Positions 25,520 through 56,270 of a stretch of DNA of 64,000 bases are shown in pieces. The DNA is taken from NCBI GenBank assembly GCA_000091205.1, contig AP006500.2. One strand, 5' to 3'. The translations under genes and the position numbers were made by a program. A model generated the notes under the pieces. The model did not search any database. It was not told the origin of the DNA and was given only the letters and a program-made list of their open reading frames with translations. Positions within the stretch are counted from its first letter, which is position 1. Every line of letters begins with the position of its first letter. This DNA comes from Cyanidioschyzon merolae (lineage: Eukaryota).

Positions 25520-27353
25520 TTCAACGGGCGTATACAGGTGCAGCGCGTCTCTGAGAGGACGCTGAACGTATTTAGAAGCGATCTACGTAAACAAGCGGCT
25601 AGGATACAGCTGATTGTACCAGAACTGGGAAGTGCAGTCCCTGAAGACGATGGTTGAAGCCTCCGGTGCGGCAGTAAAAACTGTTGGTGTCGTTCTCTTC
25701 AGGTCGCTTGAGAGAGGGCGCCTTCTTGAGCCCCACCTAGTAACCTGCCACAGGTACCCGAAGCAGGCTCTACAGCTTGCAAAAGGAAGGACTTGCCCAA
25801 TATCCAAAGTAAACGGCGCCTATCCTGAGAAGCGCTTCGGTCTCTGCGTCGTTTGCGGCTTGGAAATCACGTGGAAGGGTAAAGTATAACGGTGCCGGGC
25901 GAGGCGAGGCCAGGCCAGGTCAGGCCAAGCCATTGTTTGCGTTATCGATGCTTCGCGCTATTGTGCCGGTGCGGAAAACAGGTGACGTGTACTGCAACCT
26001 GGTCAGCATTGGGTGCCTTCATGCCGCGTAACGTTCCCGGCTAGGCTGAGCCTTTCATGAACTGGGAAAAAGTAGCGATTGACTCGCTCGGAGCCGCTGC
26101 CGCTGGCAAGGCCTCCACAGCGGAGTTCTCTGGGAGTTCACCGGACTCGCTGTGTCTGCCGTCGACAACTCGAGACGCTTTGGGGTTGATCAGCCTGACG
26201 TGCGCCTATATTTATGAAGCGTACGCCCCAAGCGAATAGGTGAAGCAACTTGACACGGAGCAGCGGTATGTGCGGTCAACTGCAGCCGGTCGCGTGGGGC
26301 TTTGGTTGGGCGCTCGTTCGCTTAGCGCGTTTCTGCTGGATATTTCGAGAGATCCGCTGCAACCGTTACGTGAAAAGTAATCCAAAGAAATTGAGTCCGA
26401 GTTCTTCGAAGGCAGGAAGCGTCGGTCGGACGTGACCGGTGGCCTCGGTACTCGCCGTCCCATGTGCAAGTGTACGCTCTAGTTTCCTTTCATGAGGGCA
26501 GCATGCGATCCCGACGGTGACCTATAACGCCGTGAAGATACCGTCTGTGTGTGCTGGACCAGATTCCATGCTTCGAGAAAACACTGACTCAGGACCTGCT
26601 GCCTGCCGTGCAGTTACGATAGTCTGACCTGGAGCTTGCCCCGGTTTTGTTATCATGAAGAGAGGTACGCTCTGAAAGTTCCCAACCGCAGCTTCGTGAG
26701 TAGAGGCAGCAACCGGCGACACAGTCTATTGTATCAAAGCACCACAATAGGATCGCGAGCTAAGTTTCTAGGGTAGCCCTTTCGCAGAAACTTTTGTGCA
26801 CGATCTTATGTGCGCCTGTTTGTACGTCAAGCGAGGCATTCGCGCGATGCCCAGTGCCAGCACTGGCGTGTCGCGAAGACACTAGCGCAACGACAAATCA
26901 CGCCGTTGACTCGTTGATCGAGCACGGTTGCTGTGGACAGAGCGCTGATGTGATAATGAAAAGCTCGGAGCGCATACTGCTTCGCGCCCGCTGGAATAGC
27001 AACGAGCGGTGCTTTTGCACTCCAGTCGGAAACCGGGAATCGAAAAAAAGCCTCTTCCCAGCGGTCTCTCCAACGTACAGAGCGCTCCGCAAAGACGCTT
27101 TCGGGGATCCCCGGCCGCCACATAGACAGGAAGGCGCGCTCGCTTCAATGCATCTCATTCTCTGTGATGCGGAATGCGTGCATACAAGTATCTATCGAGC
27201 CGTCGAGGCAAAAGAAAGGGCATGACATGTACAGCGTAACAGATTCATTCTAATAGACAGTAGATCAATATAACCAGCGTTCTGAGATCAGCAGCTTGCC
27301 CCCTGTGACTTTGCACCTCCTATCGAAGCATAAACCGCTCTGTCGGTGACGCG

Positions 27354-27400
27354 ATGTCGCTGGTTCGATCACGATGTCGCTGGTTCGATCACGATGTCGC
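27354..27400. repeat. 20-bp direct tandem repeat, 2.35 copies (atgtcgctggttcgatcacg).
   Basis: Seen directly in the sequence at 27354-27373, 27374-27393 and a partial copy at 27394-27400, about 320 bp upstream of the 27722 ATG. Confidence 0.8.
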
Positions 27401-27721
27401 AACATGCTCCTGGAACAACGCGCAGACGTTCATGGAGATGCTCCATGGAAAGCGGCGGATCCGCGCACGCATCCATCTCTCAGAGAAATGGTACCCAACT
27501 GTACATTTATGTACTTAATAAGAATAATAAGACATTGATGCGGATCCTCGTGCATCGGCATGGATCCTCGCTTGCCGCGAACGTTGATCGCAATGCAACT
27601 CGGATCGTCATCTGGTGCCGCGGCATCGATCGCGCACACGCGCTGCCTTTGATGCTCATACGCAAGCAGGATTCGCACCGTGATAGCGTTGCATTGCGTG
27701 CGAGCATAGGAAACGTTTTCC

Positions 27722-29440
27722 ATGCATATGAGCCAAAGTTTATTGTCCACGATAACTGACCTGGCGTTGAACAAAACAGATACTGGGAAAAAAGGTCAAC
27801 GTGCAACAACGAGCTCGCGGATAAGCGGTGTCGTGCACGACGACCGACGACACGAGTGGGTTGTTCCGCAGCTCCGACGCTACGCTTCTGCCACGCCACA
27901 GCGACTGCGATATATAGAACACGACAAGTCTGAACCCGATATAGGGTTTATTTTGTCACTGAACGCACGCGAGTCGGCGTTCTATTCCGGTACGAGAACA
28001 CGCAAGCGTTGCAGCGTTCTGGTTCGACGACTTCAATTCACTTTGGCGTGTGCCTCGGATGGACGCTCCGATAAGCCACGTCGGTATTTCCGTTCGAAGA
28101 AAGTGTCTCCAGTGAATCCCGCTGCAATACAGCCGCAGACGCCGGGACATGAAACTGGGTCGTCGCGAAAGAACGCTTTTGCGGCACGATCGCAGCCCCG
28201 TGATGCACCGCAAGGTGTCTTCGAGACAATTCGTCGATGGCTTCAGAAGCACGAACTAGAATCCAGCAGTCTCTGCATCCGGCTTCTTGATGACTATCGG
28301 CACGTTGACGAGTTGCTTCAGTGCTTCTGGAATGCCGTCGAGGATGTGGCCGGGGGCTCCTCTGCCGACGTCCTGCTGGCGCTGCCGCCGCTCCCGTCAT
28401 CCCTTGCCAGTGCCTTGATCGGTCACCTTCGAGAGTGCGCTGACGTCGGTGATGTCTTTGGCTCGCACGTGTTTCTCAACGCGTACGGACCCGATGAGGG
28501 AGCACCTCGGTTCTGTTTGCGGTTACGAAAAGGCTCGTCAGCTGCTGGTGGTGTCGGCGCTACGTCCCAGGATGATCCTTTTTGGTCCGATGACGAGGAC
28601 GACTTTTTGGACCCGCGTTTCGCCGAACTTTTGCGCGCATCACGCGAAGAAGATGCGGGAGAAACGTCACCCGTAGCCGTGGGGCAAGATGCTGCCCCGA
28701 CCGGCATCACGACCAATGACGACCTCGATACCAGACAGAAGCTGCAGTCCAGCGAGCTGTCCCTACCGTCGGATGAAGTGATTCTAGCAGAGAGCCGCGC
28801 TTGGGTCCAGCATATGATCGTCGATGCTGCTGTATGTCCTTTCATGATGTCCGCCGTGCGTGGTGGCTTACCAGCGGGCCAGGTACGCTATGCGGTATCG
28901 CACGCGACAACACCTGAGCGAATCTATCGTGAGTTTTGGAACGAAGTCGCCCTGCTTCGACGGACCCCTTCGAAGGACGTCTCCACCACGTTGCTGGTAC
29001 TGCCAGAACTGGTACAGGGCATAGAAGGCTTTGATGCCATTACCACGCCGCTGAGTGCAGCGCTTGAAGCGCTCCAACTCGACGCCTTCATTCAACTGGT
29101 GTTCTTTCATCCAAAGTATGCATTTCGCGACGGTCGGGATCGCATCAATACGCAAGGTTGCACGGGCGGACACGCCGCGAACTACGTGCGCCGCTCACCC
29201 TACCCCATGATCAATATTCTGCGAACAGAGCAAGTACAGCGTGGGCAGCGGGGCATCCCAACGGAACTCGTTTATCGACGGAATGAGTCATTGATGCGCA
29301 CCATTGGAGCCGAACGACTTGAACAAATGCTTCATCGACGATCTTGGGAGGAGCTTCTCCAACTCGTCCAGGACAATCGTCCCTATGCGGATCTCGAGGA
29401 AGCAGTCAAGCGTGTACGCGATCAGTTTGCGAGTTCCTGA
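27722..29440 (+). CDS. Hypothetical 572-aa protein. The C-terminal ~180 aa resemble the DUF1415 family.
   Basis: ATG start. The C-terminal region contains VCPFMMSAV, FFHPKYAFRDGRDRINTQG and NYVRRSPYPMINILRTEQ. The N-terminal half is low-complexity and basic. The DUF1415 resemblance is from memory. Confidence 0.4.
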   Translation: MHMSQSLLSTITDLALNKTDTGKKGQRATTSSRISGVVHDDRRHEWVVPQLRRYASATPQRLRYIEHDKSEPDIGFILSLNARESAFYSGTRTRKRCSVLVRRLQFTLACASDGRSDKPRRYFRSKKVSPVNPAAIQPQTPGHETGSSRKNAFAARSQPRDAPQGVFETIRRWLQKHELESSSLCIRLLDDYRHVDELLQCFWNAVEDVAGGSSADVLLALPPLPSSLASALIGHLRECADVGDVFGSHVFLNAYGPDEGAPRFCLRLRKGSSAAGGVGATSQDDPFWSDDEDDFLDPRFAELLRASREEDAGETSPVAVGQDAAPTGITTNDDLDTRQKLQSSELSLPSDEVILAESRAWVQHMIVDAAVCPFMMSAVRGGLPAGQVRYAVSHATTPERIYREFWNEVALLRRTPSKDVSTTLLVLPELVQGIEGFDAITTPLSAALEALQLDAFIQLVFFHPKYAFRDGRDRINTQGCTGGHAANYVRRSPYPMINILRTEQVQRGQRGIPTELVYRRNESLMRTIGAERLEQMLHRRSWEELLQLVQDNRPYADLEEAVKRVRDQFASS

Positions 29441-29509
29441 ATAGCGTCCTAACTCGCGCTGTAGTTGCGGCAATGAGACATGGCACAAAGACACGTTTCC
29501 GCAGATGCG

Positions 29510-29624
29510 GTGCCTCGTCTGCGGATACGTAAGGAGGCAATGCTCGGGCATTGGCGATTGTCCAAGGCACCATCGGGCGTTTCCGCGGTTACAGTGCCTC
29601 GTCTGCGGATACGTAAGGAGGCAA
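29510..29624. repeat. Two copies of a 31-bp direct repeat (gtgcctcgtctgcggatacgtaaggaggcaa) spaced 84 bp apart, in the 250-bp convergent 3' intergenic region.
   Basis: Copies at 29510-29540 and 29594-29624. They lie between the stop of the 27722 gene (29440) and the stop of the minus-strand TypA gene (29691). Confidence 0.8.
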
Positions 29625-29690
29625 CGCGCTGTTATCGGCTGGTGAGCGGGGAATGCCCCGCCAGGTATCAGAGGCAGCTCTGATATCCGC

Positions 29691-31898
29691 CTAGTTTTTC
29701 GCTCCGACGATGCTCCTGCGTTTGCTTAGCACCTTAAACATGCGTATGCTTTGTGGTGTGACTTCGACAAACTCGTTTTCACCGCTGATGTATTCAAGCG
29801 CATCGTCTAGCGTGAGCGTGCGAATCCCCTGCAACGTTTTCACGACCTCTTTGGTTGCGCTGCGATGATTCGTCAGCTGTTTCACCCGACAGACGTTCAC
29901 TCGCAAATCCTCCGGATACTTATTCTCGCCAACAATTTGGTTTTCATAGACTTCAGCACCTGGCGCGACAAACAACTGGCCGCGTTCTTGCGCAGCCTCG
30001 ACGCCATAGGTGGTCACTCGACCAGTCTCGTGGGCGAGCAGTGAGCCAACTTCCCGCAGTCGAACCTGACCCACGTAGGGCCGGTACGCTGCAAACGATG
30101 TATGAATGATTGCGGTGCCCCGAGTCAGGGTCAGGAGAGCATTGTTCAGACCAAATAATCCGCGCGTTGGTACGATATACTCCACAATACTGTACTGCTC
30201 ATTGTCCTGACTGTGCGTGAGGTTCAACATTTCTCCCCGTCGCTTGGCCAGCGCGTCCACCACCGCGCCCAGATACTCCTCGGGAATTTGAACCTCGACG
30301 TGATCAAACGGTTCAAGAGGCGTATTCGTTTCCGGGTCCATTTTAAAGATGACCTCAGGAGCACCCACAATCATTTCGAATCCTTCTCGTCTCATGGATT
30401 CGATGAGGATTGTCAAATGCAGTGCTCCTCGGCCGCAGATGGTAAACGAGTCCGCCTTTTCGCCATCTTGAATCCGTAAGGCTACATTGGTACGCGTCTC
30501 GCGTTCTAGACGCTCGCGAAGTTGCCGGCTGGTGAGGAATCGTCCCTCGCGCCCCGCAAAGGGCGTCGTATTGATCGCCAAGGACATGCGCACTGTGGGC
30601 TCCTCAATCTGCACGGGTGGCAGCAGCCGCGGATCGGCAGCATCACAGATCGTTTCGCCGATGCGGATGTCGTCTACACCAGCAACCATGACAATGTCGC
30701 CAGCGTGCGCGCTCTCCGCGCTCACTCGACCGAGATTCTCGAAAAGGAACACCTCATCCACGCGGGCGGTCCGAAGTTCCGCCTCGTCCTTTGCAGGCGT
30801 GCCAACGCGGACAGTTGCACCTTTGCGCAGTGTTCCCGCGTGAATGCGCCCGATGCCAAGAATACCTTTGTAATCGTCGCTGCTAATGTTGGAGACAAGT
30901 AACTGCAGGGGCGCATCTAGTGCGACTCTCGGGCGCGGCAGTCTAAGGATCTCTTCGAACAGGGGTCCCATGTCGTTCGCCAGCTGGTCCGGTGCATACC
31001 CAGCAACGCGCTTCAGCGCTGACGCATACACCACCGGAAAGTCGGCCTGCTCATCCGACGCACCCAGCTCCACAAACAAATCAAAGGTTTTGTTCACGAC
31101 GAAAACAGGTCGGGCAGCGGGGCGATCGATCTTGTTCACAACGACAAGAACGCGTTGGCCCAGGCGCAACGCCTCCCTTAGAACATAACGGGTCTGCGGG
31201 CGTGGACCCTCGACGGAATCGACCACGAGGAGCATCGCATCCGCCATGGAGAGGACTCGCTGCACCTCACCGCCAAAGTCTGCGTGACCCGGCGTATCGA
31301 TCACGTTGATGCGGACTCCACGGTACACGACTGCAGTATTCTTGGACAAGATGGTGATGCCTCGCTCGCGTTCTAGCTCGTTACTATCCATGACAAGACT
31401 AGAAACAGTCTGGTTTTCGCGGAAGACTTTTGCGTGGTGCAGAATTGCATCGACCAGCGTCGTTTTCCCGTGATCAACGTGGGCACAAATGGCAATGTTA
31501 ATAACGTCGTTGCGGGTTTTCAGTGCAGCTGACGCACGTGCAATAGCCTCTGGTATCGCAGAGGTGGTGCGCTCCGCCTGCGCTCGCAAGGCGCGTACCT
31601 GAAGCGTGTGTCGTGCGCTCCGCGGCAGCTGCCGAAAGCTCACTGGACGCCAACCGGGCCGACCAAACGACGTTGAACGATGCCAGAAAGAAGAATTTGG
31701 GCAGACTATAGTCTTTGGCAAAGAAAGATGACCGCTTGGCACAAAGCCGCTCAGTTTATGGGACATGCTTTTTGTTCTCAGGGCGCTGTTAGGAAACACC
31801 GACCGCGTATCCGGCGACCGCTTGTTCCATGCGATTGCCACGGGTGACGGCGGTTCACCGAGGGCCAGCCAGCGACGCAAACTCTGAATTATGGACAT
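29691..31898 (-). CDS. TYPA: TypA/BipA translational GTPase (organelle-type) with a ~125-aa N-terminal extension.
   Basis: G-domain AICAHVDHGKTTLVDAIL, DTPGHADFGGEV and NKIDR, then EF-G-like domains. ATG at 31896-31898. A second in-frame ATG (MSHKLSG, codon 45) is an alternative start. The extension is Ser/Arg/Pro-rich, like a transit peptide. Confidence 0.9.
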   Translation of the reverse strand: MSIIQSLRRWLALGEPPSPVAIAWNKRSPDTRSVFPNSALRTKSMSHKLSGFVPSGHLSLPKTIVCPNSSFWHRSTSFGRPGWRPVSFRQLPRSARHTLQVRALRAQAERTTSAIPEAIARASAALKTRNDVINIAICAHVDHGKTTLVDAILHHAKVFRENQTVSSLVMDSNELERERGITILSKNTAVVYRGVRINVIDTPGHADFGGEVQRVLSMADAMLLVVDSVEGPRPQTRYVLREALRLGQRVLVVVNKIDRPAARPVFVVNKTFDLFVELGASDEQADFPVVYASALKRVAGYAPDQLANDMGPLFEEILRLPRPRVALDAPLQLLVSNISSDDYKGILGIGRIHAGTLRKGATVRVGTPAKDEAELRTARVDEVFLFENLGRVSAESAHAGDIVMVAGVDDIRIGETICDAADPRLLPPVQIEEPTVRMSLAINTTPFAGREGRFLTSRQLRERLERETRTNVALRIQDGEKADSFTICGRGALHLTILIESMRREGFEMIVGAPEVIFKMDPETNTPLEPFDHVEVQIPEEYLGAVVDALAKRRGEMLNLTHSQDNEQYSIVEYIVPTRGLFGLNNALLTLTRGTAIIHTSFAAYRPYVGQVRLREVGSLLAHETGRVTTYGVEAAQERGQLFVAPGAEVYENQIVGENKYPEDLRVNVCRVKQLTNHRSATKEVVKTLQGIRTLTLDDALEYISGENEFVEVTPQSIRMFKVLSKRRSIVGAKN

Positions 31899-32659
31899 AC
31901 TTGTTCAAAATATGATACACTTCTCGGGTGCTGCGCTCTCGTGTAAGACGCGTCGCAGCCAGCCCGTCCTCAATCGTCGTATACTACTACCAGACACAAA
32001 ACTTACCGATCTTGATGTAGAGATATTGGATCGAATTGTGTTCCTATGAATGCCCAGAAACTACCCGTGACAAGCGAAGAGCACTCTGTTCCCCGAGAAA
32101 CGCATGAAGAGGTTTCGCACGGCCCCAGACTAGTCCTTGCGTCGGGCGTAGAGGTGGGATCGATCTCGCGATGCTTTGGTACACTCTCTGGTGTATGCTT
32201 GCTCGGCGGCAGCCGCGGTCACCGTGCGGGGGCAGCACGGCCTCGGGCACCTCGCGGACGTGCGCCGGAGGGCGCGGCGGGTTCCCTGTGTGGCCCCGCG
32301 CGCTGCATGCGCCCGCATCGTTCCACGACCTTCCATCACCGGCCAGCGCTGTATAGCCGCATCCGTGCAGCATCTGTACGGTATCCGGGTGTGCATCTGT
32401 TGAGAGCATCTGGGAAAGCATCCACGTGGCAGCGCAGCTGTCGACGCGCGTGCCTGCCCCTCCGCCGGAGCGTTCTCGAAGCTGGGCGATCACCAGAGCG
32501 AGCGCGCATCGCGCACGCCACAATTCGATGACTCGAGATGCGCTCTCAGCGCTACTTGTCGCGCATAGAATGTTTGTGCCTCTAGCTCGATATACAGCAA
32601 GTGCAAGACAGGAGCGGGCTTTTGCGTGTTCCAAGGCTCAACATTCGAGACGCGTATCC

Positions 32660-33232
32660 ATGTCGACTGGCAAGACTGTGCTTTATAGTGCGCCAAACTC
32701 GCGCGGCGCTATGGTCGAGTGGTATATTCGATCGATCAAGGCGCCAGTAGAAGTTGTAAACCTGGATATGGGCAAGGGAGAACACAAGTCACCAGAATTT
32801 CTTCGAGTGAACCCGTTTGGTAAGGTTCCAGCGTTGGAGGAGACCGGCCCAGAGCCCTGGTCATTGAACGAGTCGGGAGCGATTCTCTACTACCTCGCCG
32901 AGAAGTATGACCGGAACTTCCCGAAGGACGCGCATCAAAGAGCTCAAATACTGCAGTGGATTCTGTTTGCGAATGCTACACTGGCGCAGACTGCTTTTAT
33001 GGAATCTCTCCGAGAGAAGCAGTTGCCTGGACTGCTTGCAGCTCTGGATCAGCACTTCAGCAAGCATACCTTTGCTGTAGGGGAGACGTTCACCGTTGCG
33101 GATGTAGCGTTGGGCTCCTATCTCGGCTATATTCCGATGTTTTTCCCTGGGAAAGTCGATATGACGCCGTACTCACACCTGAATGCGTACATGGAGCGGG
33201 TAAAAGAACGTCAGGCGGCCGCGAGTGCGTGA
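32660..33232 (+). CDS. Glutathione S-transferase (190 aa).
   Basis: The track ORF starts at a GTG at 32426. The first ATG is 32660 (MSTGKTVLYSAPNSRGAMVEWYI...). GST N-terminal thioredoxin-fold motifs are LRVNPFGKVPALEE and ESGAILYYLAEKY, followed by a helical C-terminal domain. Confidence 0.75.
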   Translation: MSTGKTVLYSAPNSRGAMVEWYIRSIKAPVEVVNLDMGKGEHKSPEFLRVNPFGKVPALEETGPEPWSLNESGAILYYLAEKYDRNFPKDAHQRAQILQWILFANATLAQTAFMESLREKQLPGLLAALDQHFSKHTFAVGETFTVADVALGSYLGYIPMFFPGKVDMTPYSHLNAYMERVKERQAAASA

Positions 33233-36200
33233 GAGCAGCTCAAGTTGAGTTTGGACGGTAGGTATGGCACCCAAGCGGCGCACGAAAATGCCAGCAAAGC
33301 GAGCGGGCGCGTATCGAACGGGTTCTATGGCTGGAGCCCGAAACGTTGCGGATGCGTTATGAGCCGCGGGCCGGGTACCTGCTGATTTTTTTTGGATGAA
33401 GGTAAGAAAGCATCAGAAGCGCAACGCGGCTCCTGATGTGCTACATGCTGATATGCGCAGGGAAAGTTTGGCGCACGCTTAACTTAATGTAAAGCATGAG
33501 GAGTAATTGAGGATGTTCTCGTTCTTCCCATTGCTCTTTGCGGCGACAAGGCAGACCTTCGAACGCGCTGAATGCTGCTGCTGTCGCTCAAGTGCTATAG
33601 TTCATGGATTCGTTGCGATGCTCGCGTCATTCCCGAAGCTTGGATACGCGCGCTCGTCTGCATGAGAGAAAGGCCTGGGAGCGTCTTCGAATACCACGTG
33701 ACCGTGTCATAGCAGCGGCTACAAATGGTTTTCTCTGACACCCAGCAGAAAGCGTAAAGAAAAGCAATGTCTCCCTAGCGACCGCAAAAGCGATGAACGC
33801 TTGCTCGCGGACGCGGAGAAGGATCTGCCCATGTCCGCGCGCCTGCCGCTAGGGTTTGCTGACTCGCCTTGCCAATGGCCTTCACTAGCAAGCTGCCGAG
33901 TTCAACGTTTGGTTTGCCTAACCATGGACCTCTGAGTTGCTTTGCGTGCGACCTACGCCAGACAGTAGCTCGCAACCTTAAGTGGTGTAACTGGCGATAG
34001 TACGCATTCTTGGTACATGCGCCACTAGAACCAGGTAGAGACCTCCATGAGAGCCTCGTCACTGCAGCTTGAACTGAGAACACTCCTATTCGATTTCGTT
34101 GGACCGCGGGATTGTCTAAACAAAGCACGAGATCCTCGACTGCGCGATGTTTAACGTCGCAGCAGTGAAGTACGGAGCACCCGCGCTAGCACGTCGTTCT
34201 TGTTTGATTTGATTTTCTCGCAGATATTCTTCACAAGGAATGCTTCCAGTATCTTCAAGAAAAGTCGCTGGGATGCTTTATACTGTCACAGCTGGCTTGC
34301 GAAAATTATCGGCCTCTTACAAGCAAGTTATTCCAAATTCAGTGGGTGGACAAACCTTCCGCCTCGTCGTGCATATGCACGCCGTCATGCGCCCAACGCA
34401 GAACTTTTCTTTAACTCTGTTTACACAACTGTATCTTCGTCAATCCATTCCATTCCGTACCTTGTCTTCGCGAGACTGCCAAAGAAGCCACGCGATGTGA
34501 AGTTCATGTTCCGTTGACTCGATCGCTGACGAACAAACACGGATGGACGAAAAAAAGCAGGCTTCAACCGGAAGCGTCCAGCGTTGAATACCACGCTATC
34601 GATATCGGGCGGAAACGCGGATGCGCATTTCATGGGTGACGGGCATTCGTCTCACTCGATGACACTTCACTCCGGAGATGTCGTCCACCGGTAGATGGGT
34701 ACACAAAGGGCAGCAAAACGCCGTTCGTGAAACTGAGACATGCAAGCATGACGACAACATCAGCCCTGGCCGCGGTTCGATCACATGGTTATCGACAATT
34801 CGAATAACGCGCAAGTTCCTACGAAACCTGATGCTTCGTCGAAGCACGCTTCGTGGCTTCTCACTGCGATACGCTTCCGTCCTACTCTTCGATAATGTGA
34901 CTTTCGATCGTTCAAAAACGGTCAACAAGTAAACAGGTGAGATTGGCACTGAGCGGCGCATCGAGCTAGCCTATTTTCCCTGGTTCAGTCCAGTCCACGA
35001 AGCCTTCTCTGTTGTCAAACGCCTCGTTTATGGCAACAGATTCATAGACGAGTCGTTCGCATCCGTGATCCCTTTCTTCGGAAAATCGTTCTGTACCTTT
35101 GTTAGCCCTGAGCTGCTGTGCAGGCGCTATGATCATGCACGGGAGAGAGAGAGAGCTTATGCACTTCGGTTCATGGGCGTGCTCGTGATGAAGAAAATGA
35201 CGAAAATGTCGGTAAGAAATAGGCGATACACGATTAGAGAAGGCTAGCTTCGGGAAAAACGTCCAGCCAGAGTTCCGAAGAAAGAACGGTTATGGAGTAC
35301 ATCAAATACTGTTACGCAACCCAGCCAGGTAAAGGAAGATGGGAAGACGGGGCTGGTCTCTGCGAGTAGATACGAAAGATGCGAACAACCTCACGAAAAG
35401 CATCTGCGATGCTCATTCAAGCTTCCTTGTTTACGGAGAAGAAATGAAAAGAAGTTTACCGGGAAGATGCGGATCGGCGACATGTCCATCTGCATGCACT
35501 TCATGAAACCTAGGCCTACATCGAGCAACGGAGCTTATTTCCATTCATTCAAGGCAAATGAAGAGCAAAACTTTGTGATGAGCATGTATCCCGGGTTCGA
35601 GGAGGTTACAGCGGCCGCCGAACCCTGAAATCATGCGCATGGATCAAAAGACGTCAATGGAAAGCAAGCCAAGCGGCTAAACGGTTTCAACATTGACTAG
35701 TATAGAGAGTCGGGCATGGCAGACGCCAGGACGCATACGAACAAGAGGAATGACGGCGTCGAAAGTTATCTCGACGTTCTGAGCACCGCATCGAGCATGG
35801 CGTTATGCTTTGTATGTCTCGTTCGGAGCGCATACAAGTGTCCAAGTTGCACGTGCGGACCGTGTTTCGTGGACATGGACAACACAGAGCTGGAGTCGCC
35901 AATGACGTGCATTAGACGGGGTATGAAATGTGCATCCACCAACTGGCTCAATATCCAGGGAGGGGATATAAAAGACGCATAGCATCGTTTGATGGTGATA
36001 GCAAATTGCACTGGACGTGCCGTGGTACGGAATGGGTGGACTCCTGCATTCTCGCCGATAGCGTACCACGAGTGCAGAAATCGGCTCTGCTCAATTCCCG
36101 TCGATGCGGTTACAGCGACATACACACGTCATGAGCACGGGTGAACGCTCTGACAGACACAGAAGAAGAGTTTGGAGCGGATCCGTGCGCTTGAGTTTTG

Positions 36201-37540
36201 TGCGAGGTGAGCCAACCGAGCATCCGATGCCGAGGCCATTAAAAATAAAAAGGCTCGCTATGGAGTTCTTCGATCGGCAACTATATCCGCGCAAGCACTT
36301 TCCGCACCAAAACGTGACCGCTCCGATTAACATTCGAAGATGTCTCGTACTTCAGAAGCGTCCGGTGGCTTTACGTCGAGCGATTTTCTTCGATGCAATC
36401 ATTCTGGACTTAGTGTAGGTATTGCGCTGAAATATACAAGACTTGCGTTGAAAAAATCAGTGGCCAAGAGCGCGAGCTTGGATTCCCGCCTGGAGCAACC
36501 CACAGGGGTGGCACGGTTCAGGAATCCAGCAAGGCTCCAGTACCGCGCACATCTTTCCACCTGAAACGATTTCTATGGACAGTCGGTAGACGATCATCAT
36601 ATTCCATTATTCGATATTCCTAGCAATAAAATCAGCTCGATGCGAATTGCTAGCCTATATAGGTGCACGCGAAAGTGAGCAGCGCTCTTTTGCAACCTCG
36701 CGCGTCTCGGATGCGTGCAGCGCCTCCGAAGTGACGGATTTCATGGACGCTCGTGACGTCCGATTTTTCCATGGACAAAACGTCTACATTGGCCAGCGTG
36801 CTCCGATTACGCGCTTTTATCTTCTTTCTTTTTTTCTGTGTTTTTTTGCAGTGCGCGGTGACGTCCGATCCGTTTCCGACACATGCTCAGATACGCCGCA
36901 ACTCAAACTCAGGGTAAATTATCTCATGAGCAGTATTCACTGGTAACTTTGAAAGATCACTTCCAGCCGTAACAGCTACCGCTTGAGAATACTGAGGCAA
37001 TCGCATTGCCAGCGGCATCTGGAGCTCAACGACGCCATCGCGTTGCCGATCCTGGAACTTGCCTCGCTCTCCGAGCACGCAAAAGTCGCTCCGTCTCCGT
37101 GCGAGGCACGCGCAGTGGCCGTCGATGCAGCGCCGTCGCAAGCGTCCACCACAGGCGCGCTGGGAACACCCATATCAGTAGTGGATCCCTCCAACTTCTA
37201 TTTCAAACAAGAGGCCCGTTCTACACCTTATGGAACGTACTGATCTTTAGAAAGCAAGGATAATCCTATTTTGGACTGCTGTTCGGCATGATGCATCCCC
37301 AGGGTGCTCCTTCAGATCGTCGACCTACCAGCGTCCAGCAGCGCTCGCGAGTACGCGGCAGTGTGCGCGCGCTTGACACGCGGCCCGCGACACGCATCGC
37401 GTTCGCCAACGAATCTGCATCCGCACCTGTCACGTGTACTGACGAGAAACGGGGCGGGTAGCAACGCCTTTGGACGGAGGGTTTGTGTTTGCTGCTCGTT
37501 GCAGCCGTTCTGGGTGCACTCAGTGACTACGTGACTGGAG

Positions 37541-37602
37541 CTGCGAGGTCTAGGTTGGGTGCTGACCTCGCAGTTGACTGCTCATCGACCGCTTTTTTTT
37601 TT
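37541..37602 (+). promoter_or_regulatory. Perfect 10-bp inverted repeat (CTGCGAGGTC, 13-nt loop, GACCTCGCAG) followed 20 nt later by a T10 run, ending 4 nt before the GDPD ATG.
   Basis: Stem 37541-37550 and 37564-37573. T10 at 37593-37602. ATG at 37607. Confidence 0.5.
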
Positions 37603-37606
37603 GTAA

Positions 37607-39841
37607 ATGAGCGCACCCGTGGAGCGACTCGAGGAAATTGACGTGGCAGTTCAGCGGGCTGCGCAAGACTTTAGCCTTCGGGAGTTGCACTTCCACGCGC
37701 TGCCGGCGGTCTATCGGCAGGAACTGGAGGAGCAAGAAGGTGCGGTATCGCAGCGTGCGAGTGGTCCCAGGTGCAGCGTTGGTGTTGCGGTGAGCGGTGT
37801 GCCTGCAGAGGCGGCGGCGCGCAAACTCGCGCGCGACACCCGTGCGGACATCCTGCTTCGCGTTACGCTCGGTGAACCGCGCATTGGCTCTTTCCAAGCA
37901 ATAAGCTTGCGTCGCCAGAGACTGCGTACGAATTCGGAACTGGAGGTATTCCAATGGCTGGAGCGCCGTCTCGAAGGCCAGGGCCACGGCGTCGCGGATC
38001 CGAGCACAGGAAGCGCTGCGGATGGAGGCGCGCTCCTCTTCCGCATCACCGGCCCTGAAGGTGTGCAGCATGTATTTACAGGTTGGTCGAACGATTGGAT
38101 ACAGTGCACGGCGGTTTTTCATGCGAACTTTTTTGATGATCTAGACATGCTGGTGGACGTGCTCTGGAACCCGCCCGAAAACGGAACATCTGGAGGACAG
38201 GCCACCTCCACGAGCCAGTTTATCGGCAGAGCGGCCATCATGGCTTCAGAGCTCGTCGAGATGAAGGGTGTACTGCAGCGACCGTTGGTCAATGACGCGC
38301 ATAGCGTCATCGGTGAATTCCGGTGCGAATACTGTGTGATTAAGCCGTACGCGGGTACCTTGCCTCCGCGAATGGCACAGTTGCGTTTCAGTCTGAATGA
38401 AGGAATCAATGAGCGCAAGAAGATCCAACTTATCGGTCATCGCGGGGCTGGTAGTCAAAAAACGCGCAGCCGCGTCCAGGAAAATACGGTGTTGAGCTTT
38501 CTGACCGCGATACGCAAGGGCCTGGTGGATGCGATCGAGCTGGATGTGCAGTTGACCCGCGATCAAGTACCGGTCATTTACCATGATTTCTTCATCCGTT
38601 GCGTAGACGAGGACGACGTCGATGAGAGTGACGACGAGCGTTTTCGGACCGCGTGGAGCGCTTCACCCGTTCGCTCGGATCGCGGTGCGCGTCTCAACGA
38701 GAGCATGTTGAACGGCTCCCGGGTTTTGACGCGCTCATCACGGACTCCAGATGACAGTGCCGAAGACGTACACTGCACCTGTGAAACGGCCAACTTAGAG
38801 TATGCTTCGGAGCGTGACAGTTGCAGAGCGTCTGCAGTCTCGGCGAACAGCACACACCATGTTGCAGCAGCGGATGCAACGGCCCCGCCGTCGACGAACA
38901 CGCTGACGAATGCCTCGACGAGCGATCAGCCGCACTGTCTCCGGGATCATGCTCGGGCGAGTGGCAAGGCGAACCAACCGAAATCGAGGCGTTACGGAAC
39001 ACCTATTTATTCTCTAACGTACGAAGAGTTCAAGAGCGCGTGCCGCAGCATGCCCCGTTCGCGCAGCCGCGGCGGTAATCTCCGTGTCCACGGAACGACA
39101 CCGCAGAGAGAGCCGCGCTGGTCCGATGAGTGGTCGGATTTCACGCGGGTGGCATCATCGGACGGGAACCTGGGGTATCTGGTACGCCATTTCTCCGAGA
39201 GCAGTGAGCGCACCGATGACGCGAATCCTATCGCGATGATACGGGACAACGCGCTGCCGTCGCTGCGTCGCGTTCTTGATCGGGTTCCCGAGGAAATCAC
39301 GCTTCTTGTCGAAATCAAGTATCCAACACCAGAATTAATGAGAGAAACGTCGCTACCCTATCCGGAGCGCAATCACTTCATCGATCGCGTCCTCGAAGTC
39401 ATTTTCCAGAAGGGCAGCCTCAAGCGTCGCATTGTCTTTCTCAGCTTCGACCCGGATGTTTGTCTGATGGTTCGCAAGAAGCAAGCCATTTACCCGGTAT
39501 GCTTCCTGAATGCGGCTGGACGAAGCGCCATGAGTGAACATAGCGACCCGCGGGCACTTAGCGTAGCGAACGGCATCGCGTTTGCGGTCTGGGCCGGCCT
39601 CGACGGCATGGTGCTTCTGTGTGATCTGATTTTCGAAGAGCCTGGTATCGTTGAAATCATTCATTCCGCTGGACTCAAAGTTTACTGTTACGGGAGCTCT
39701 ACCGCCGAGCCTCATTACTGTGAACAGCTCATTCATTGGGGTGTCGACGGTATTATCGCCGATCGGGTCGGCTACATTGCACGAGCCTTGAACCCACTCT
39801 TCATGGCGAATGCGAATCCGGAAACGATCGAAACCGCGTAA
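37607..39841 (+). CDS. Glycerophosphodiester phosphodiesterase (GDPD/GP-PDE) domain protein, 744 aa, with a ~270-aa N-terminal domain and a long low-complexity insertion splitting the GDPD fold.
   Basis: GDPD catalytic motifs LIGHRGAGSQ ... ENTVLSF ... AIELDVQLTRDQVPVIYHDF. The C-terminal half of the barrel is LLVEIKYPTP, FLSFDPDVCLMVRKK and GLKVYCYG, after a Ser/Ala/Arg-rich insert of about 230 aa. N-terminal domain not assigned. Confidence 0.75.
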   Translation: MSAPVERLEEIDVAVQRAAQDFSLRELHFHALPAVYRQELEEQEGAVSQRASGPRCSVGVAVSGVPAEAAARKLARDTRADILLRVTLGEPRIGSFQAISLRRQRLRTNSELEVFQWLERRLEGQGHGVADPSTGSAADGGALLFRITGPEGVQHVFTGWSNDWIQCTAVFHANFFDDLDMLVDVLWNPPENGTSGGQATSTSQFIGRAAIMASELVEMKGVLQRPLVNDAHSVIGEFRCEYCVIKPYAGTLPPRMAQLRFSLNEGINERKKIQLIGHRGAGSQKTRSRVQENTVLSFLTAIRKGLVDAIELDVQLTRDQVPVIYHDFFIRCVDEDDVDESDDERFRTAWSASPVRSDRGARLNESMLNGSRVLTRSSRTPDDSAEDVHCTCETANLEYASERDSCRASAVSANSTHHVAAADATAPPSTNTLTNASTSDQPHCLRDHARASGKANQPKSRRYGTPIYSLTYEEFKSACRSMPRSRSRGGNLRVHGTTPQREPRWSDEWSDFTRVASSDGNLGYLVRHFSESSERTDDANPIAMIRDNALPSLRRVLDRVPEEITLLVEIKYPTPELMRETSLPYPERNHFIDRVLEVIFQKGSLKRRIVFLSFDPDVCLMVRKKQAIYPVCFLNAAGRSAMSEHSDPRALSVANGIAFAVWAGLDGMVLLCDLIFEEPGIVEIIHSAGLKVYCYGSSTAEPHYCEQLIHWGVDGIIADRVGYIARALNPLFMANANPETIETA

Positions 39842-41088
39842 GCTATCAAGATGATTCACAGGGCCCAGTGCTGCGCAAAATCGGTCACCAATGCGAAACC
39901 GAAAGTGGGTTCAGAAGCAGCACCTGACCCGATGAGTGCGACACCGCGTCGGTACTGACGCAAGCACGACGTCTACACGCGAGCGACCGGCATGCCGGGC
40001 AACGGTGTTACGGTCGACAAGTCGCACCGTCGACGCACCCAAGGACGAGCGTCGTCGGCGCTTTGTGCCGTGCGTGCACGTTCGTGCGTCGTGAACTAGA
40101 GCGCCACCAGCATCAACGGTATCATCGGTATCACCTCGGGGCGATCATTTGCCTTGAAGCGACGCTTGGTCGTTTGCGTATGCCTCGAGACGCGATGTGT
40201 GCCGCGGTCCGACGTGTACGCAGTGCGGCAAGTACCGCAGCAGCATGACGACCTTACCAATACCATGCAGGATATCGCGAGCGCCGGACGATCGATGCTT
40301 TTGTGGATTTCGCTCCAACACTGTGGACAGTGGGATTTGGTGCACACGACGTGGGCGTCCATCGCTGGGGTCGGCAAAGGTGCCGATCACGCGCTTCGCC
40401 TTGTGATTTCGATGTATTGGGAAATGCTCCAGGCACAATGCCCGAACGATCGAACGAATGCTATACAGCACCAAGCGCTGCAGGGACCCAGACCAGACCG
40501 CAATGACAGGCAGGGCTATTTGTGATGGGCGAAGCTCGTCGTGATGCTAGCGGGGCGATTCTGGGGTCATCCAGCATGATATAAAATCATTTCAAAGAGC
40601 GCAGGGAACTCGCTCGTTCCGTGGGAGTGCGCATCTGAGTAATCCCGGATGCTGATGAAGCGACTTGTTCTGCTCTCGTGCTCGAACAGAAAGGTTACCA
40701 TTTCAGATACAGTGTGTAAACAACATCTCGAGCACCTGCGGTTACAAATGCGTTGTTTCGGACGCAGGTCTGCGTCGGTCTCGGAGGCATTCGTTTGGAG
40801 CTTGTGTCCGGGGCACGCGTTCCCGAAACGCTTTTGACACCGTCTGGCGCTGATCCGCTGTACCCTTTCTAGCATCGGATACGGATACAGTTGGCGATTT
40901 CACACGGGGAGCCGAATGTTGCACGGGCGTATCTCGAGGCCAGCAAGCATACTGCTATTACGCTTGCCCGTGTGGTGCGTCTGCGCGAATACCCTGGTGA
41001 TGGACCCGACCGTCCAGGTCTGTTCATGGTCCGACCGAGGCGCTCGATGACACAGGCCTCTCGAGTGCATTCCTCGGAGCTGCAGATT

Positions 41089-41781
41089 CTAGACAAACTT
41101 GGGAGACGGTCCCGCTGAATTGTCTCGGGCCGAATCTGAACCCTCATTCGTACCGGACTTTGCCTCTAATAAAAGCTGCGTACAACGAAACAGCGCAATG
41201 GGATGGTGGACGACCCCACGGGTCTCGGGTGTCGCTCGTGTGCGCACCTCAGCGTCCCATACTTGGGTAGTACGGCCGGCGTGCCGCAGCCATGCCTCTA
41301 CCTCCAAGTCACCGCTGAGGGCGGTACCAAGAAACTGGCTCGAGAGCTGCACGGTTGCAAAGTTAATACGGTTTGGCGGTAGGCTTATATAACAACCGTA
41401 TCCACATGCAGTGTCAGCAAGCGTGACGATGCTGCCTGCGTGGAGGTATCCGTTCGCTGCTAGCAACGAAGGCTGAATCGGCAGTGACGCGACGACACGA
41501 CCATACTCAACGTGGTCGATTCGGAAACCAACTAGCCGCGGTAGCCCCGTTACGCGCTCATTCAACAAGCCCACGAGTGACGCCCAGTCCTTTGGGGTAC
41601 GCTCACGAGTCCGTTGATCGGCGTTCTGGTGCTCGCCTGCGCGGTGGCTCTTCCGGCCTGAACCACTGGATGCAACTCGGCTCCGTGGTTGGCTCCAGCG
41701 TGACGATCGGCCTCGAGGCCGTTGCAGTTGAGCCAGAAGCGGTAGTCTCCAGAGCGATTCACCTACAGGCCGAGAAAGCAT
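41089..41781 (-). CDS. Hotdog-fold acyl-CoA thioesterase (PaaI/thioesterase-superfamily-member-like) with an N-terminal presequence.
   Basis: The track ORF starts at a GTG at 41799. The in-frame ATG is 41779-41781. Contains LVGFRIDHVEYGRVVASLPI ... NGYLHAGSIVTLADTACGY ... TTQVWDAEV. Confidence 0.55.
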   Translation of the reverse strand: MLSRPVGESLWRLPLLAQLQRPRGRSSRWSQPRSRVASSGSGRKSHRAGEHQNADQRTRERTPKDWASLVGLLNERVTGLPRLVGFRIDHVEYGRVVASLPIQPSLLAANGYLHAGSIVTLADTACGYGCYISLPPNRINFATVQLSSQFLGTALSGDLEVEAWLRHAGRTTQVWDAEVRTRATPETRGVVHHPIALFRCTQLLLEAKSGTNEGSDSARDNSAGPSPKFV

Positions 41782-42893
41782 GGACCCGTGACACCACACG
41801 CAGCGCTGCTGGAGCAGTACGCACCCTGTTTATCGCACACGATCGCTGCGTCTAACCAGACCCTGCCCGCTCCGATGGTTTTGTCGACAACCCGAGAACG
41901 AGACTAGCCCAGATACCCTACGATATTGAAACGGAAGCGTGTATATGTTTGTGTTTGCCGGTCAAGGGTAGCCAGGTTGCTAGCGATCAACGCGCTGCTC
42001 GAATGCTGATAATGAGCGCATCGTCAGCGATCCGCTGCTTCTTGCCGCAGGTGGTAAAGCGCACTTGCACAAGCACGAGCACTCGAATATTTCACCAACC
42101 ATATGTACTCGTTTGACACAACGTTTACATAAATCATGAATTCCCGATTGCGTGATGCATCTTGGCATTCGAGTGAGCACTGATCATGCTTCACATCTAC
42201 CTCCAGGTACCCGGATGGAAACTTGCTCTCGGATGCGCCAGCTGGTCGATGATTGTGCCTGCGCAGTCGCAGGGCCTGGGGCGAGGGCGTCTACCGGCGC
42301 CTCTGCAAGGCTGAGCTGGAGGTCCTCGCTCCGGGCACTAGACTTTGTTTCATGGAGGATCTCTGAATCTAGACAGGGATACCCGAGTCTGCCACTTTTT
42401 TATCTGTCTGTGTGGGAGCAATCAGCGATCCGTCGCCATTCGGTTGTGTTGCTCTTGTTTCAGCCCAGACTTGTGCTCCGGGATCATGGATATGGCGCAC
42501 GCTTGTCGCGCAGCGGCCTGGAAGGACACTGAGCGCACGAAGCGCCCTCAAAAGGTTCTCCGCATCGAAACGAGTGGATATGCGGTTCGAGCGATGCTGC
42601 AAGCGGGTTGTACATTGAGACATCTCGCTTGAGGCATCTGGGCTGACGCTCCTGGCGTTCATCGCCCAAACGGGGGAAACCAAGCCTCCGAGCAGAGACA
42701 CGTGCGTGCTGCGTATCGTTCACAAACCACGAATTGCACCGATCCGTCGCATTCTGGACGATAATGACGCCTCCAGTGGGCGCCTGCATACGGTTGCTGC
42801 GCGCTTTTCCAGGAGCCCGAGATACCTGCGAGGCGGAGGCGCTCGACAGAGCTACCCGATGTGCCGCAGCCTGGGGCGCGTTGGCGAGACCCG

Positions 42894-53960: not shown

Positions 53961-56270
53961 GACCGTTTATATTGCCTGGGGAATAGCACCCACAACCAGT
54001 CCAAACCGGTTTGACAATGCACATCGACGTTGTGACACGTGCTGTAGTGTTGGCGATCGTGGTGGCGTGTGCCCTGCGTCCAAGATCGCCACCGCATCGC
54101 GTGTCGAGCCTGTAGCGTGCCACGTGTCCCATAGAGGGAAAAACGATGCTGTGGAGGCCCTCGGTGCCACGACGCTGCGCGCTAGGGACAATACTGTACA
54201 TGTCGTTGATCGTCTCCCATACCAATTGTGTTCCACAGCCCGGTGCGTGTCCTGAAATGCTTTTTTAGCAGATCATAGCAGATGCGATCGAGTTGGGTTC
54301 ATTTGAAGAAATAGAAAATCTAAGGCAAAGTTGTGGAGATAAGCGCAGGGGATCTCGAAGAGCCGATGTCGCCGAGTGCAGGAAAAAGCCGAAAGGAATA
54401 CCTTCTCGTCGGCCATCGATCGGAGATAAACAAGCGACGGCGACGAGGAAGAAGATGAGAGGGGAGGAGATCGTCGAGAAAAGGTATTTACTCGACGTCA
54501 TGATGACGAGATTATAGCATTATAGAGGGCATGAGTTTTAGGCATCCTTGCAGCGGCGCGTTCAGCCCGCGTCAATACGCGCATAGAGTTCGTGAACCGA
54601 TACTTCAACGCCGCTGCAGATATCAGACGATTTGCGGTGCTGGAGGCCAGTCCCTGGTAGCTCACGTGATCCAACATTGTGGGGCAGCGTCCCAGACTCG
54701 AAATGTGCCCAGATAAACTGAAACTGATGGAAGGCGGCCGGTCGAAAAAGGCTGGGAGGCGTCTTCAAGTCGCCGTATATGCATACCCCCCGTGGTCGTG
54801 GGGCATTACGTTCTTCACTGAACACAGATCGGAGCGCGCAGATCGTCTAGTCTGCTGTAGAGAAGAGAGGCATGCGAGCCGTTCTCGGTGTTCAAGCATT
54901 AACGAGTCGCTCGTACGCATGGACACGACAACGAGACGTCGAGCACGAGGCAGTGCATAGCCATATGCGTCACTTTCGCACGCGCGTGCACGTAGGACAC
55001 GTTGTTGCCGCGCAGAGGACAGCGAGGTATCTAGTCTGAGCCAGTGGATAATCCAATGGGCCGTTTTCGCATTTTTATGCACGACGGGATGCTGTCTATT
55101 AAAACGGACTGGCGCGGGTACGCGGACGCAGCCGGTCGTGAGAGCGGAGTCCACAGCTTCCCTCTAGGGTATTTGTGGAAACGACCGTCTCCCGCACAGA
55201 CTTATGGTCTAGAATGGAGCATTCGGCTGGGGAAATCTCTGATTCCCTCGCAGGCGTGGAACGGGCACTGGACACAAGGCCGCGATGGTCGCGCGCTCGA
55301 AGGCCGGAGGGTTTCACGATACCCTGACGTGATCCAGCCCGAAGTTTCGGAACACTGCCAACTGAGGAGCGTGCACACACAGGGTGCTCCTTGACTTGCG
55401 GTACTGGGGCGGCAAGACGGCAACGATTCGGATTACATGGAAAACGGGTTCGGGCGAGGCGCTTCGGCCTATCATGATGTTTGTGCTGTCGTCGTTGTGC
55501 ATGGCAACGAAGTGCGGGCCCGTCGGACGGTAGAACCACCGCTCTCCAAAGCGACAAACCTCACCACCATGAAAACCCGCGTACGGTGGCTTTTCTGCAT
55601 CACCAGTACTGATTCGAGGGAGCGCCTCCCTGAGGCTTCGGTGTCCCGGGCGCGATTCACTTTGCCTGCGCGGTATTCCGGGCCCAGCGCTCGCATCATT
55701 CATTGATTAGGGTTTTCTGGCAACTTGCTTGTTGCTTGCATGAGCGGTGCGCGCTCTGGGTATGAATTCCGGCATCAAGCCAGGGTCGACTTGCGTATAC
55801 GGTGCGCCAGCTGCTCCGATCAAACATGCAATGCAGCGGAATGTTCGGTTGACGTCGCGCAGCGCTTACAACCATCGGACAAGCATGACGTTGATGCTTC
55901 CGGCACTAAGTCAGAAAGAGCCGTCTCCTGCATTCCAGTATGAAGAAGGCGACAGGGACAACAAAGACACCAGTTTACGGTTCTGGTGAACAAGTTTTCG
56001 AACCGATGCCCCAGTGGCATGAGAAGACCGTTCGGTCTCTGTGCTGCACACGCTCTGGTGCTACAGGAGCTATTGCAGACGCTCAAGGCAGGCTTTGTGT
56101 GATGTAGAGCGTACGAATGACCAATAACTTCAAGGGAGAGTACGAAAAGGATATGGTGGAACTCGGATCTAGAGCTTGGAATAATGGACGCTCTCTCGGA
56201 GGCCGATCTGCTTCTAAGACTAGGTTATCTCTAGTCTCTGCAAACGTTCTGTCCATGAGGAGAGCAATAG

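Follow-up and report, generated by a model that had tools for sequence, protein, structure and literature searches.

Fanzor1 is the eukaryotic homologue of TnpB, an RNA-guided RuvC nuclease. This study concerns a stretch of 4,374 bp that separates a glutathione S-transferase (GST) gene from the gene of a GDPD-family glycerophosphodiester phosphodiesterase (GDPD) in Cyanidioschyzon merolae contig AP006500.2, and which was found to contain the remains of a Fanzor1-carrying element and of a short retroposon-like repeat. The window, by which we mean the whole stretch of DNA that was analysed, is 64 kb long, eukaryotic and intron-poor, with a guanine-cytosine (GC) content of ~56%. All positions are those of the window, and + and - denote its two strands.

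A novel interspersed repetitive element with 253 copies and a mean length of 3.2 kb is found on all chromosomes of C. merolae and accounts for ~5% of the genomic DNA (Nozaki et al. 2007; PMC1955436). All of these copies carry a truncated open reading frame (ORF) whose relationship to WSV486 of white spot syndrome virus is weak, and the element is transcriptionally active (PMC1955436). Bao and Jurka (2013; PMC3627910) recorded one Fanzor1 family each for C. merolae and for white spot syndrome virus. That of C. merolae, CMe-1A, comprises ~150 copies of ~3 kb with ~80% identity to the consensus, has no terminal inverted repeats (TIRs), was left with its target-site duplications (TSDs) undetermined, and shares its 5' 635 bp, at 95% identity, with a second repeat of ~70 copies, TE-N2_CMe (PMC3627910). 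From the two published descriptions, we infer that a single family underlies both the 253-copy repeat and CMe-1A. The class I elements reported for C. merolae, 26 in all, are exclusively of the non-LTR type (LTR, long terminal repeat).

The relic between GST and GDPD belongs to this already described repeat family. Like CMe-1A, it resides in a Cyanidioschyzon-type host, is ~2.5-3 kb long, carries a single Fanzor1 ORF of the usually truncated kind, has dispersed relatives, and lacks TIRs and recognizable TSDs. With regard to divergence the two differ, by comparison with the published description, as CMe-1A copies are ~80% identical to their consensus and the relic would be older or of another subfamily.

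We propose, with a probability of roughly 0.92, that the GST-GDPD spacer is an ordinary intergenic spacer of ~1.8 kb that has been enlarged by two mobile-element insertions, both now inert. A Fanzor1-carrying element of ~2.46 kb would have inserted at 34160-36620 on the + strand and decayed to a pseudogene; a 93-nt, 5'-truncated, poly(A)-ended repeat would have inserted at 36765-36857 on the - strand, creating a TSD of 12 nt. Read on the + strand, this second insertion would mimic a polypyrimidine tract followed by CAG. The evidence comes from homology, from where the elements end, from inactivating changes and multi-copy status, from the lack of both pieces at the corresponding sites of relatives and from a neutral level of polymorphism. 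Among the origins suggested for this DNA by a first-pass annotation, namely a multi-intron gene, a noncoding RNA locus or a decayed insertion, the last agrees with our results, since the spacer holds a dead Fanzor1-type transposon and a repeat fragment with its TSD, neither of which occurs in the syntenic spacer of relatives.

A Fanzor1 pseudogene at the protein level

The nine longest open frames of the spacer were concatenated and used as the query of a HMMER search of 1.84 billion protein representatives. The non-self matches were weak to moderate, and consisted of short ORFs on other contigs and one full-length protein of 699 amino acids (aa), P0253. When compared with the window by tblastn, P0253 matched 35350-36186 in frame +1, across in-frame stops (E=4e-21), and 36119-36388 in frame +2 (E=3e-7). 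This protein has ~100 relatives of 580-780 aa, and from an alignment of 37 members, in which D421, E592 and D658 are invariant, we built a family profile of 618 positions, A1. With this profile, hmmsearch identified a Fanzor1 pseudo-ORF with the RuvC-I and RuvC-II regions at 35350-36216 (+ strand, frame 1; E=3.3e-20, profile positions 290-570 of 618) and its C-terminus, a RuvC-III relic, at 36290-36391 (+ strand, frame 2; E=1e-4, profile positions 572-605). The earlier statement that the stretch has no ORF with recognizable similarity holds for Pfam searched with all six frames, and fails at the depth of this search.

Searches with P0253 singly against Pfam, and with phmmer against the PDB, gave nothing useful, so that the Fanzor1 identity was reached only through the family alignment. 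A1 matched the solved Fanzor1 structures of Parasitella parasitica (9cf0, E=1.8e-15) and Spizellomyces punctatus (8gkh, E=1.1e-10), and gave E=0.12 with Guillardia theta Fanzor1 (9cer). The match to the solved structures spans the RuvC-I DPG, RuvC-II DEFRT and RuvC-III RD.NAA.N motifs. The Cas12f1-like TNB domain PF07282 was found in P0340 with 26.9 bits (cut-off 26.3), reached 25.2 bits in P0294 and 17.4 bits in P0288, both below the cut-off, and was not detected in P0253 or P0278; family members also matched the NCBIfam model guided_TnpB (RNA-guided endonuclease TnpB) with scores below its cut-off. The likeness to bacterial TnpB of IS200/IS605 and IS607 (NF040570, PF07282) is a weak match of the C-terminal TNB/RuvC-III region of the family (E=9e-7 and 5e-6). 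Unlike bacterial TnpB, the family is eukaryotic, ~600-700 aa long and equipped with a long N-terminal extension, and the neighbour of its intact metagenome relatives, which lie on contigs of 3.7-4.9 kb, is a DDE_3 (Tc1/mariner-type) transposase rather than TnpA.

In contrast to the proteins of the solved structures 9cf0 and 8gkh, the copy in the spacer has retained neither the catalytic triad nor the reading frame. All three residues of the RuvC D-E-D triad are replaced: the aspartate of RuvC-I by tyrosine (MSMYPGF vs vgvDpGr), the glutamate of RuvC-II by alanine (VDAVTAT vs vdEFRtt) and the aspartate of RuvC-III by asparagine (HQNVTAPINI vs nRDlNAAiNI), the last within HQNVTAPINIRRCL, which aligns with nRDlNAAiNIrrcl. 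The frame is further interrupted by six in-frame stops and one frameshift. To judge by its sequence, this copy is a dead Fanzor1 relic and not a working member of the family.

ORFs of 120-300 aa have been called antisense to the Fanzor1 pseudogene across copies, at 34596-34961 (- strand) in the spacer and in the homologous P0249, P0255 and P0257. They are probably not genes; base composition is the likely cause, as the purine-rich sense strand leaves few stop codons on its complement.

DNA copies and boundaries of the relic

At the DNA level, the decayed element covers ~34160-36620 (2,461 bp, + strand) and contains no intact ORF. In a comparison set of ~1 Mb of cyanidiophycean contigs, many loci match 34301-36536 at 64-72% identity, and under relaxed scoring 12-14 independent decayed copies are colinear with the relic at 57-61% identity, with E-values down to 1e-140. 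The alignments of these copies end on the left at 34140-34163 and on the right at 36612-36621, and the DNA beyond these points is unrelated among copies. The locus of one of the ORF matches, P0251, which derives from samples that also contain the window's organism, carries a paralogous decayed copy colinear with 34208-36147. The 3' tail of the relic, at 36392-36620, likewise aligns to other copies; no omega-RNA, which Fanzor1 elements encode at this end, was identified there, Rfam having matched no family and no RNA model having been built. The family is multi-copy and mobile in character, as seen from the relics within the window, from those that a scan of 130 loci (L011-L140) revealed in 54 of them, and from the relatives adjoining DDE_3.

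The GC content of the relic is 49.9%, and that of better-preserved copies is 49.0-49.2% within contigs of 52-54%. The low-GC, ORF-poor appearance of the spacer is accounted for by this intrinsic GC content of ~49% together with the purine-rich sense strand. From 11 better-preserved copies we built a DNA profile of a younger subfamily (nhmmer), which recognized just 119 nt of the relic (E=4e-4). This near-failure, combined with the high divergence from other copies, indicates that the relic is an old copy or belongs to an older or different subfamily.

Two other Fanzor1 relics lie in the window, giving 3 in 64 kb as against ~1 per 65 kb expected from 253 copies in 16.5 Mb. At 1628-2296 (+ strand) there is an internally deleted copy of ~670 bp from the better-preserved subfamily (nhmmer E=1.7e-33), in which profile positions 213-581 are fused to 2422-2672; it retains a near-intact RuvC-III motif, FVSRDFNAAINISRC, at 2082-2192 (E=3e-10). 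A second internally deleted copy, at 54189-54778 (+ strand; profile positions 292-478 and 2428-2677, E=1.3e-27), has a decayed RuvC-III motif at 54571-54675 and is situated in an ORF-free gap at 53967-56233.

A poly(A)-ended repeat behind the polypyrimidine tract

The first-pass annotation had pointed to a polypyrimidine tract followed by CAG as a possible splice signal. The tract is present at 36814-36849, with CAG at 36849-36851, and it is the only one of such strength on the + strand of the window. It lies, however, within a 93-nt copy of a 5'-truncated, retroposon-like repeat at 36765-36857, whose A-rich 3' end is on the - strand. This copy is similar to the P0254 locus (L020), where positions 5019-5114 show 84.5% identity over 97 nt, a match that takes in the entire T-rich tract and the CAGTGCGCG that follows. 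Sequence reading and a TSD scan showed the copy to be flanked by two 12-nt copies of GTGACGTCCGAT, at 36753-36764 and 36858-36869. Protein matches P0252 and P0254 span 36752-36860, and comparison of the window with itself showed 36762-36816 to resemble 62406-62461. As the tract and the CAG belong to a high-copy repeat with its own TSD, they are not a splice acceptor.

The degenerate 24-nt core of the repeat, GGCCAGCGTNCNCCGANTNNGCGC, occurs twice in the window, where 0.01 occurrences are expected, and in at least 120 metagenome stretches. The copies, which are ~100 to 450 nt long, have one end in common, a run of 5-9 T (poly(A) on the opposite strand), and are variable at the other; they are often bracketed by direct repeats of 10-22 nt. 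Among 50 copies with distinct flanks, adjacent direct repeats of at least 10 nt were found in 18, compared with 5 of 50 controls in which the flanks were shifted by 40 nt, and repeats of at least 12 nt in 15, compared with 2 of 50. This signature is that of a 5'-truncated, poly(A)-ended retroposition, for which target-primed reverse transcription would be the mechanism. A constant A-rich end, variable truncation, TSDs of 10-22 nt and a high copy number are all shared with insertions of non-LTR retroposons and short interspersed elements (SINEs). The repeat differs from these in forming, in some copies, head-to-tail arrays with a period of 149-150 nt (L043 735-908, L086 104-276 and L122 1952-2124), which a simple retroposon model does not predict. 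By description, the repeat may be the TE-N2_CMe of Bao and Jurka.

A second copy in the window, longer and more diverged, is found at ~62381-62533 (poly(A) sense on the - strand; locus L060), ~200 bp upstream of an ORF at 62652-63878. Of the more than 100 copies, the three first seen, namely those in the spacer, at ~62381-62533 and in L020, all point to a downstream + strand gene.

In the metagenome contigs, the poly(A) end of the repeat is also found immediately upstream, or no more than ~25 nt upstream, of the 5' end of Fanzor1 elements in the same orientation, with at least three types of junction (L021/L025/L039; L085/L057/L114/L061; L034). In the spacer, 144 bp separate the repeat from the relic, toward which its poly(A) end is turned. 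The junctions may correspond to the composite described by Bao and Jurka, in which the 5' 635 bp of CMe-1A resemble TE-N2_CMe, or could reflect a target preference. A broader proposal, namely that the repeat is a SINE-like retroposon, perhaps TE-N2_CMe, and that Fanzor1 and retroposition are mechanistically coupled in this lineage, is speculative and in our view unlikely. Under such coupling, reverse transcription might be primed by breaks at the borders of Fanzor elements, or these elements might home beside the tail of the repeat; if true, it would bear on the mode of transposition of CMe-1A-type elements, which have neither TIRs nor TSDs.

Comparison with related genomes

A metagenome relative (L007) and Cyanidiococcus (L008) have kept the gene order DUF1415 - BipA (-) - GST (+) - GDPD (+) - 4HBT (-) - purple acid phosphatase. 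The Cyanidium lineage (L009, L010) has no GST, and there BipA adjoins GDPD. The GST-GDPD spacer measures ~990-1,090 bp in the metagenome relative and 1,148 bp in Cyanidiococcus, where the start of GDPD maps to 9419. Compared with these spacers of ~1.0-1.15 kb, the 4,374 bp of the window imply that its lineage carries ~3.3 kb of extra DNA. Alignment to related genomes, which had been suggested as a check, confirmed that this DNA has no counterpart at their syntenic loci: blastn and tblastx matched the flanking genes only, and the Fanzor1 and short-repeat profiles found nothing in the loci of the four relatives. The Fanzor1 relic would accordingly have been inserted after the split from these relatives.

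Variation among haplotypes

Across the spacer, the window shares 99.1-99.5% identity with six metagenome contigs (L001-L006), which may represent wild populations of the same species, sampled in hot-spring metagenomes. The Fanzor1 relic is present in every haplotype. Variable sites, scored among the window and L001-L005, were most frequent in the relic, with 1.38%, the highest value of the segments tested, compared with 0.57% in the unique flanks of the spacer (Fisher p=0.0096), 1.03% at codon position 3 and 0.62% in all coding sequence (CDS). Since polymorphism is commonest in the relic, it behaves as unconstrained, neutral DNA. Neither of the two inserted pieces appears to be functional at present.

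A 4-bp GAGA indel at 35142, in a (GA)n run at ~35143-35155, is present as an insertion in L001 and L003, where it opens a 165-aa ORF that has been called on both contigs; this ORF is broken in 4 of the 6 haplotypes.

Of the 927 bp of unique DNA at 33233-34159, 3 sites are variable, all of them outside 33233-33884. The latter interval is part of a longer stretch, 32687-33884, which takes in most of GST and the adjoining 652 bp of the spacer and has no variable site over 1,199 bp in seven haplotypes. Within 23800-41900, no other invariant gap is as long: variable sites are spaced 96 bp apart on average, and the second longest gap measures 801 bp. Constraint on a 3' untranslated region (UTR), a selective sweep or an unannotated element could account for the invariant stretch.

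One of the six contigs, L006 (JGI 3300050386), carries GST and the first 1.8 kb of the spacer, with a gene for a Snf7-domain protein immediately upstream instead of BipA; the junction is at 32598. Its single-nucleotide polymorphisms form a mosaic of those of the other haplotypes. The junction results either from structural variation in the population or from a chimeric assembly.

Weighing the alternatives

Several points weigh against the two-insertion reading. The N-terminal half of the pseudo-ORF (34160-35350) escaped detection at the protein level and is recognizable solely by DNA similarity to old copies. The relic is 57-61% identical to its nearest copies, compared with the ~80% to consensus quoted for CMe-1A. 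Neither repeat scans nor inspection of copy ends revealed a TSD, TIR or terminal repeat at the ends of the Fanzor1 element; with no such footprint, its insertion is deduced from copy boundaries and synteny.

A hidden multi-intron or micro-exon gene, with a 3' splice site at 36814-36851 and a 5' splice site at GTAAAT 36914, would explain why splice-like strings are present and why the tract is the strongest in the window. We regard this as scarcely credible, given that the tract and its CAG are part of a repeat with at least 120 copies, that codon usage gives none of the frames a positive score of the kind seen in real genes, and that the longest called ORF is made or broken by the GAGA indel. 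The six-frame codon-usage scan of the spacer revealed no coding-like stretch, with a discrimination that is weak in this genome; Pfam detected no domain in the six-frame translations at E<=1, and tblastx against relatives was likewise empty. A regional centromere of the C. merolae type, that is, 2-3 kb of unique, gene-free DNA of lower GC content that recruits CENH3, is very improbable in our judgement, despite a resemblance in size and GC content. According to the passages on centromeres in bioRxiv 10.1101/096016 (citing Kanesaki 2015) and in PMC4976089, those of C. merolae measure 2-3 kb and have 48.4% GC, compared with 55% for the genome, with no other pattern being mentioned there; the spacer offers ~2.5 kb of DNA with ~49-50% GC in a ~56% GC genome, and its core at 34196-36695 (49.6% GC) has no internal repeats. 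The GC dip is nevertheless explained by the transposable-element relic, which belongs to a family with an intrinsic GC content of ~49%; the 64 kb contain two further stretches that are as GC-poor and hold element copies, although a chromosome should have a single centromere; two relatives have only ~1 kb at the syntenic site; and, as a rough prior, 20 centromeres stand against hundreds of long spacers or element copies.

Exaptation of the relic or its flanks, leaving a residual omega-RNA-like transcript or a long noncoding RNA that influences GST or GDPD, is an improbable account, though it finds some encouragement in the transcriptional activity reported by Nozaki et al. for the 253 repeat copies of C. 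merolae, in the invariance of 32687-33884 among seven haplotypes and in two 150-nt windows of the spacer with minimum free energy (MFE) z-scores near -3.5. The invariant stretch, however, lies outside the relic and beside GST, where a 3' UTR is expected, and the relic itself is the most polymorphic of the segments tested. Rfam, applied to the whole window at gathering thresholds and, as the first-pass annotation had recommended, to the spacer in particular, returned no family even at E<=5 on the latter, and sliding MFE z-scores averaged -0.09 over the spacer, showing no excess of predicted structure. A noncoding RNA locus in general likewise finds no support in these results. A scan for tRNA and tmRNA found nothing, and bacterial-type promoters and terminators occurred at chance level, in a scan ill-suited to a eukaryote. 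The candidate of a telomerase RNA was dropped, as no C-rich template-like run was seen on reading the sequence, no pattern search having been made. Direct, inverted and tandem repeats within 32-39 kb were limited to matches of chance size, with no long terminal repeats and no TIRs.

The interpretation as two inert insertions has practical consequences. Annotators should mask the stretch as a decayed Fanzor1-family repeat and a retroposon fragment, and not treat it as intron, hidden-gene or centromere material. In compact red-algal genomes, long, GC-poor and empty spacers can be fossils of a single family, as in the three low-GC gaps encountered here; such fossils are missed by standard Pfam and Rfam searches and are revealed by family-specific profiles or copy-to-copy DNA alignment. 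The TSDs of the short repeat and its recurrent position beside Fanzor1 could help to classify two repeat families left unclassified in the literature.

Flanking genes and composition of the spacer

The left flank is formed by the GST CDS at 32660-33232 (+ strand; Pfam GST_N and GST_C), whose protein has an identical copy on 17 metagenome contigs. The right flank is the GDPD CDS at 37607-39841 (+ strand; Pfam GDPD, E=3e-34), with its closest named relatives in Cyanidiococcus yangmingshanensis and Cyanidium caldarium, at 63% identity, which points to a cyanidiophycean red alga of the Cyanidioschyzon type. An exact look-up of the GDPD protein found no record, and the matches of GDPD and of the highly conserved BipA comprised Cyanidiococcus, Cyanidium and other red algae and no C. 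merolae protein. In the gap of 4.4 kb noted in the first-pass annotation, long open frames are indeed absent over a greater distance than anywhere else in the window (4.3 kb, the runner-up being 2.5 kb). Its description as AT-richer is correct at the scale of 2.5-3 kb, at which the GC minimum of the window falls in the spacer (49.6-49.8%, ~3 standard deviations below the mean), and for the spacer as a whole (51.8%, compared with ~57% in ORF-covered DNA). At the scale of 1-2 kb, it is not distinctive, as 679-2678 (48.6%), which contains the Fanzor1 copy at 1628-2296, and 60452-61451 (47.6%) are equally GC-poor. Without the two insertions, the spacer would measure 1,797 bp and have 54.8% GC, within the normal range of the window.

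The part adjoining GST, at 33233-34159, is unique DNA of 53.8% GC, unmatched in the ~1 Mb of related contigs, and is probably the GST 3' UTR and terminator region. The MAPKRRTK ORF noticed in the first-pass annotation exists within it, at 33264-33362, and is a chance ORF of 32 codons. The TATAAAA box is likewise present, at 35967-35973 (+ strand), and is a chance match inside the pseudogene: the window contains 3 such strings, with 1.78 expected, and 28 of 100 shuffled sequences reach 3. The unique, GC-richer DNA upstream of GDPD, at 36870-37606 (56.0% GC), has no repeat match and no coding signal, and is probably the GDPD promoter and 5' UTR; the GTAAAT previously noted is found there, at 36914-36919. 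On the other side of GST, between it and the divergent BipA, a block at 32050-32500 has a GC content of 67-70%, far exceeding that of the remaining window, and presumably serves both genes as promoter or 5' UTR region.

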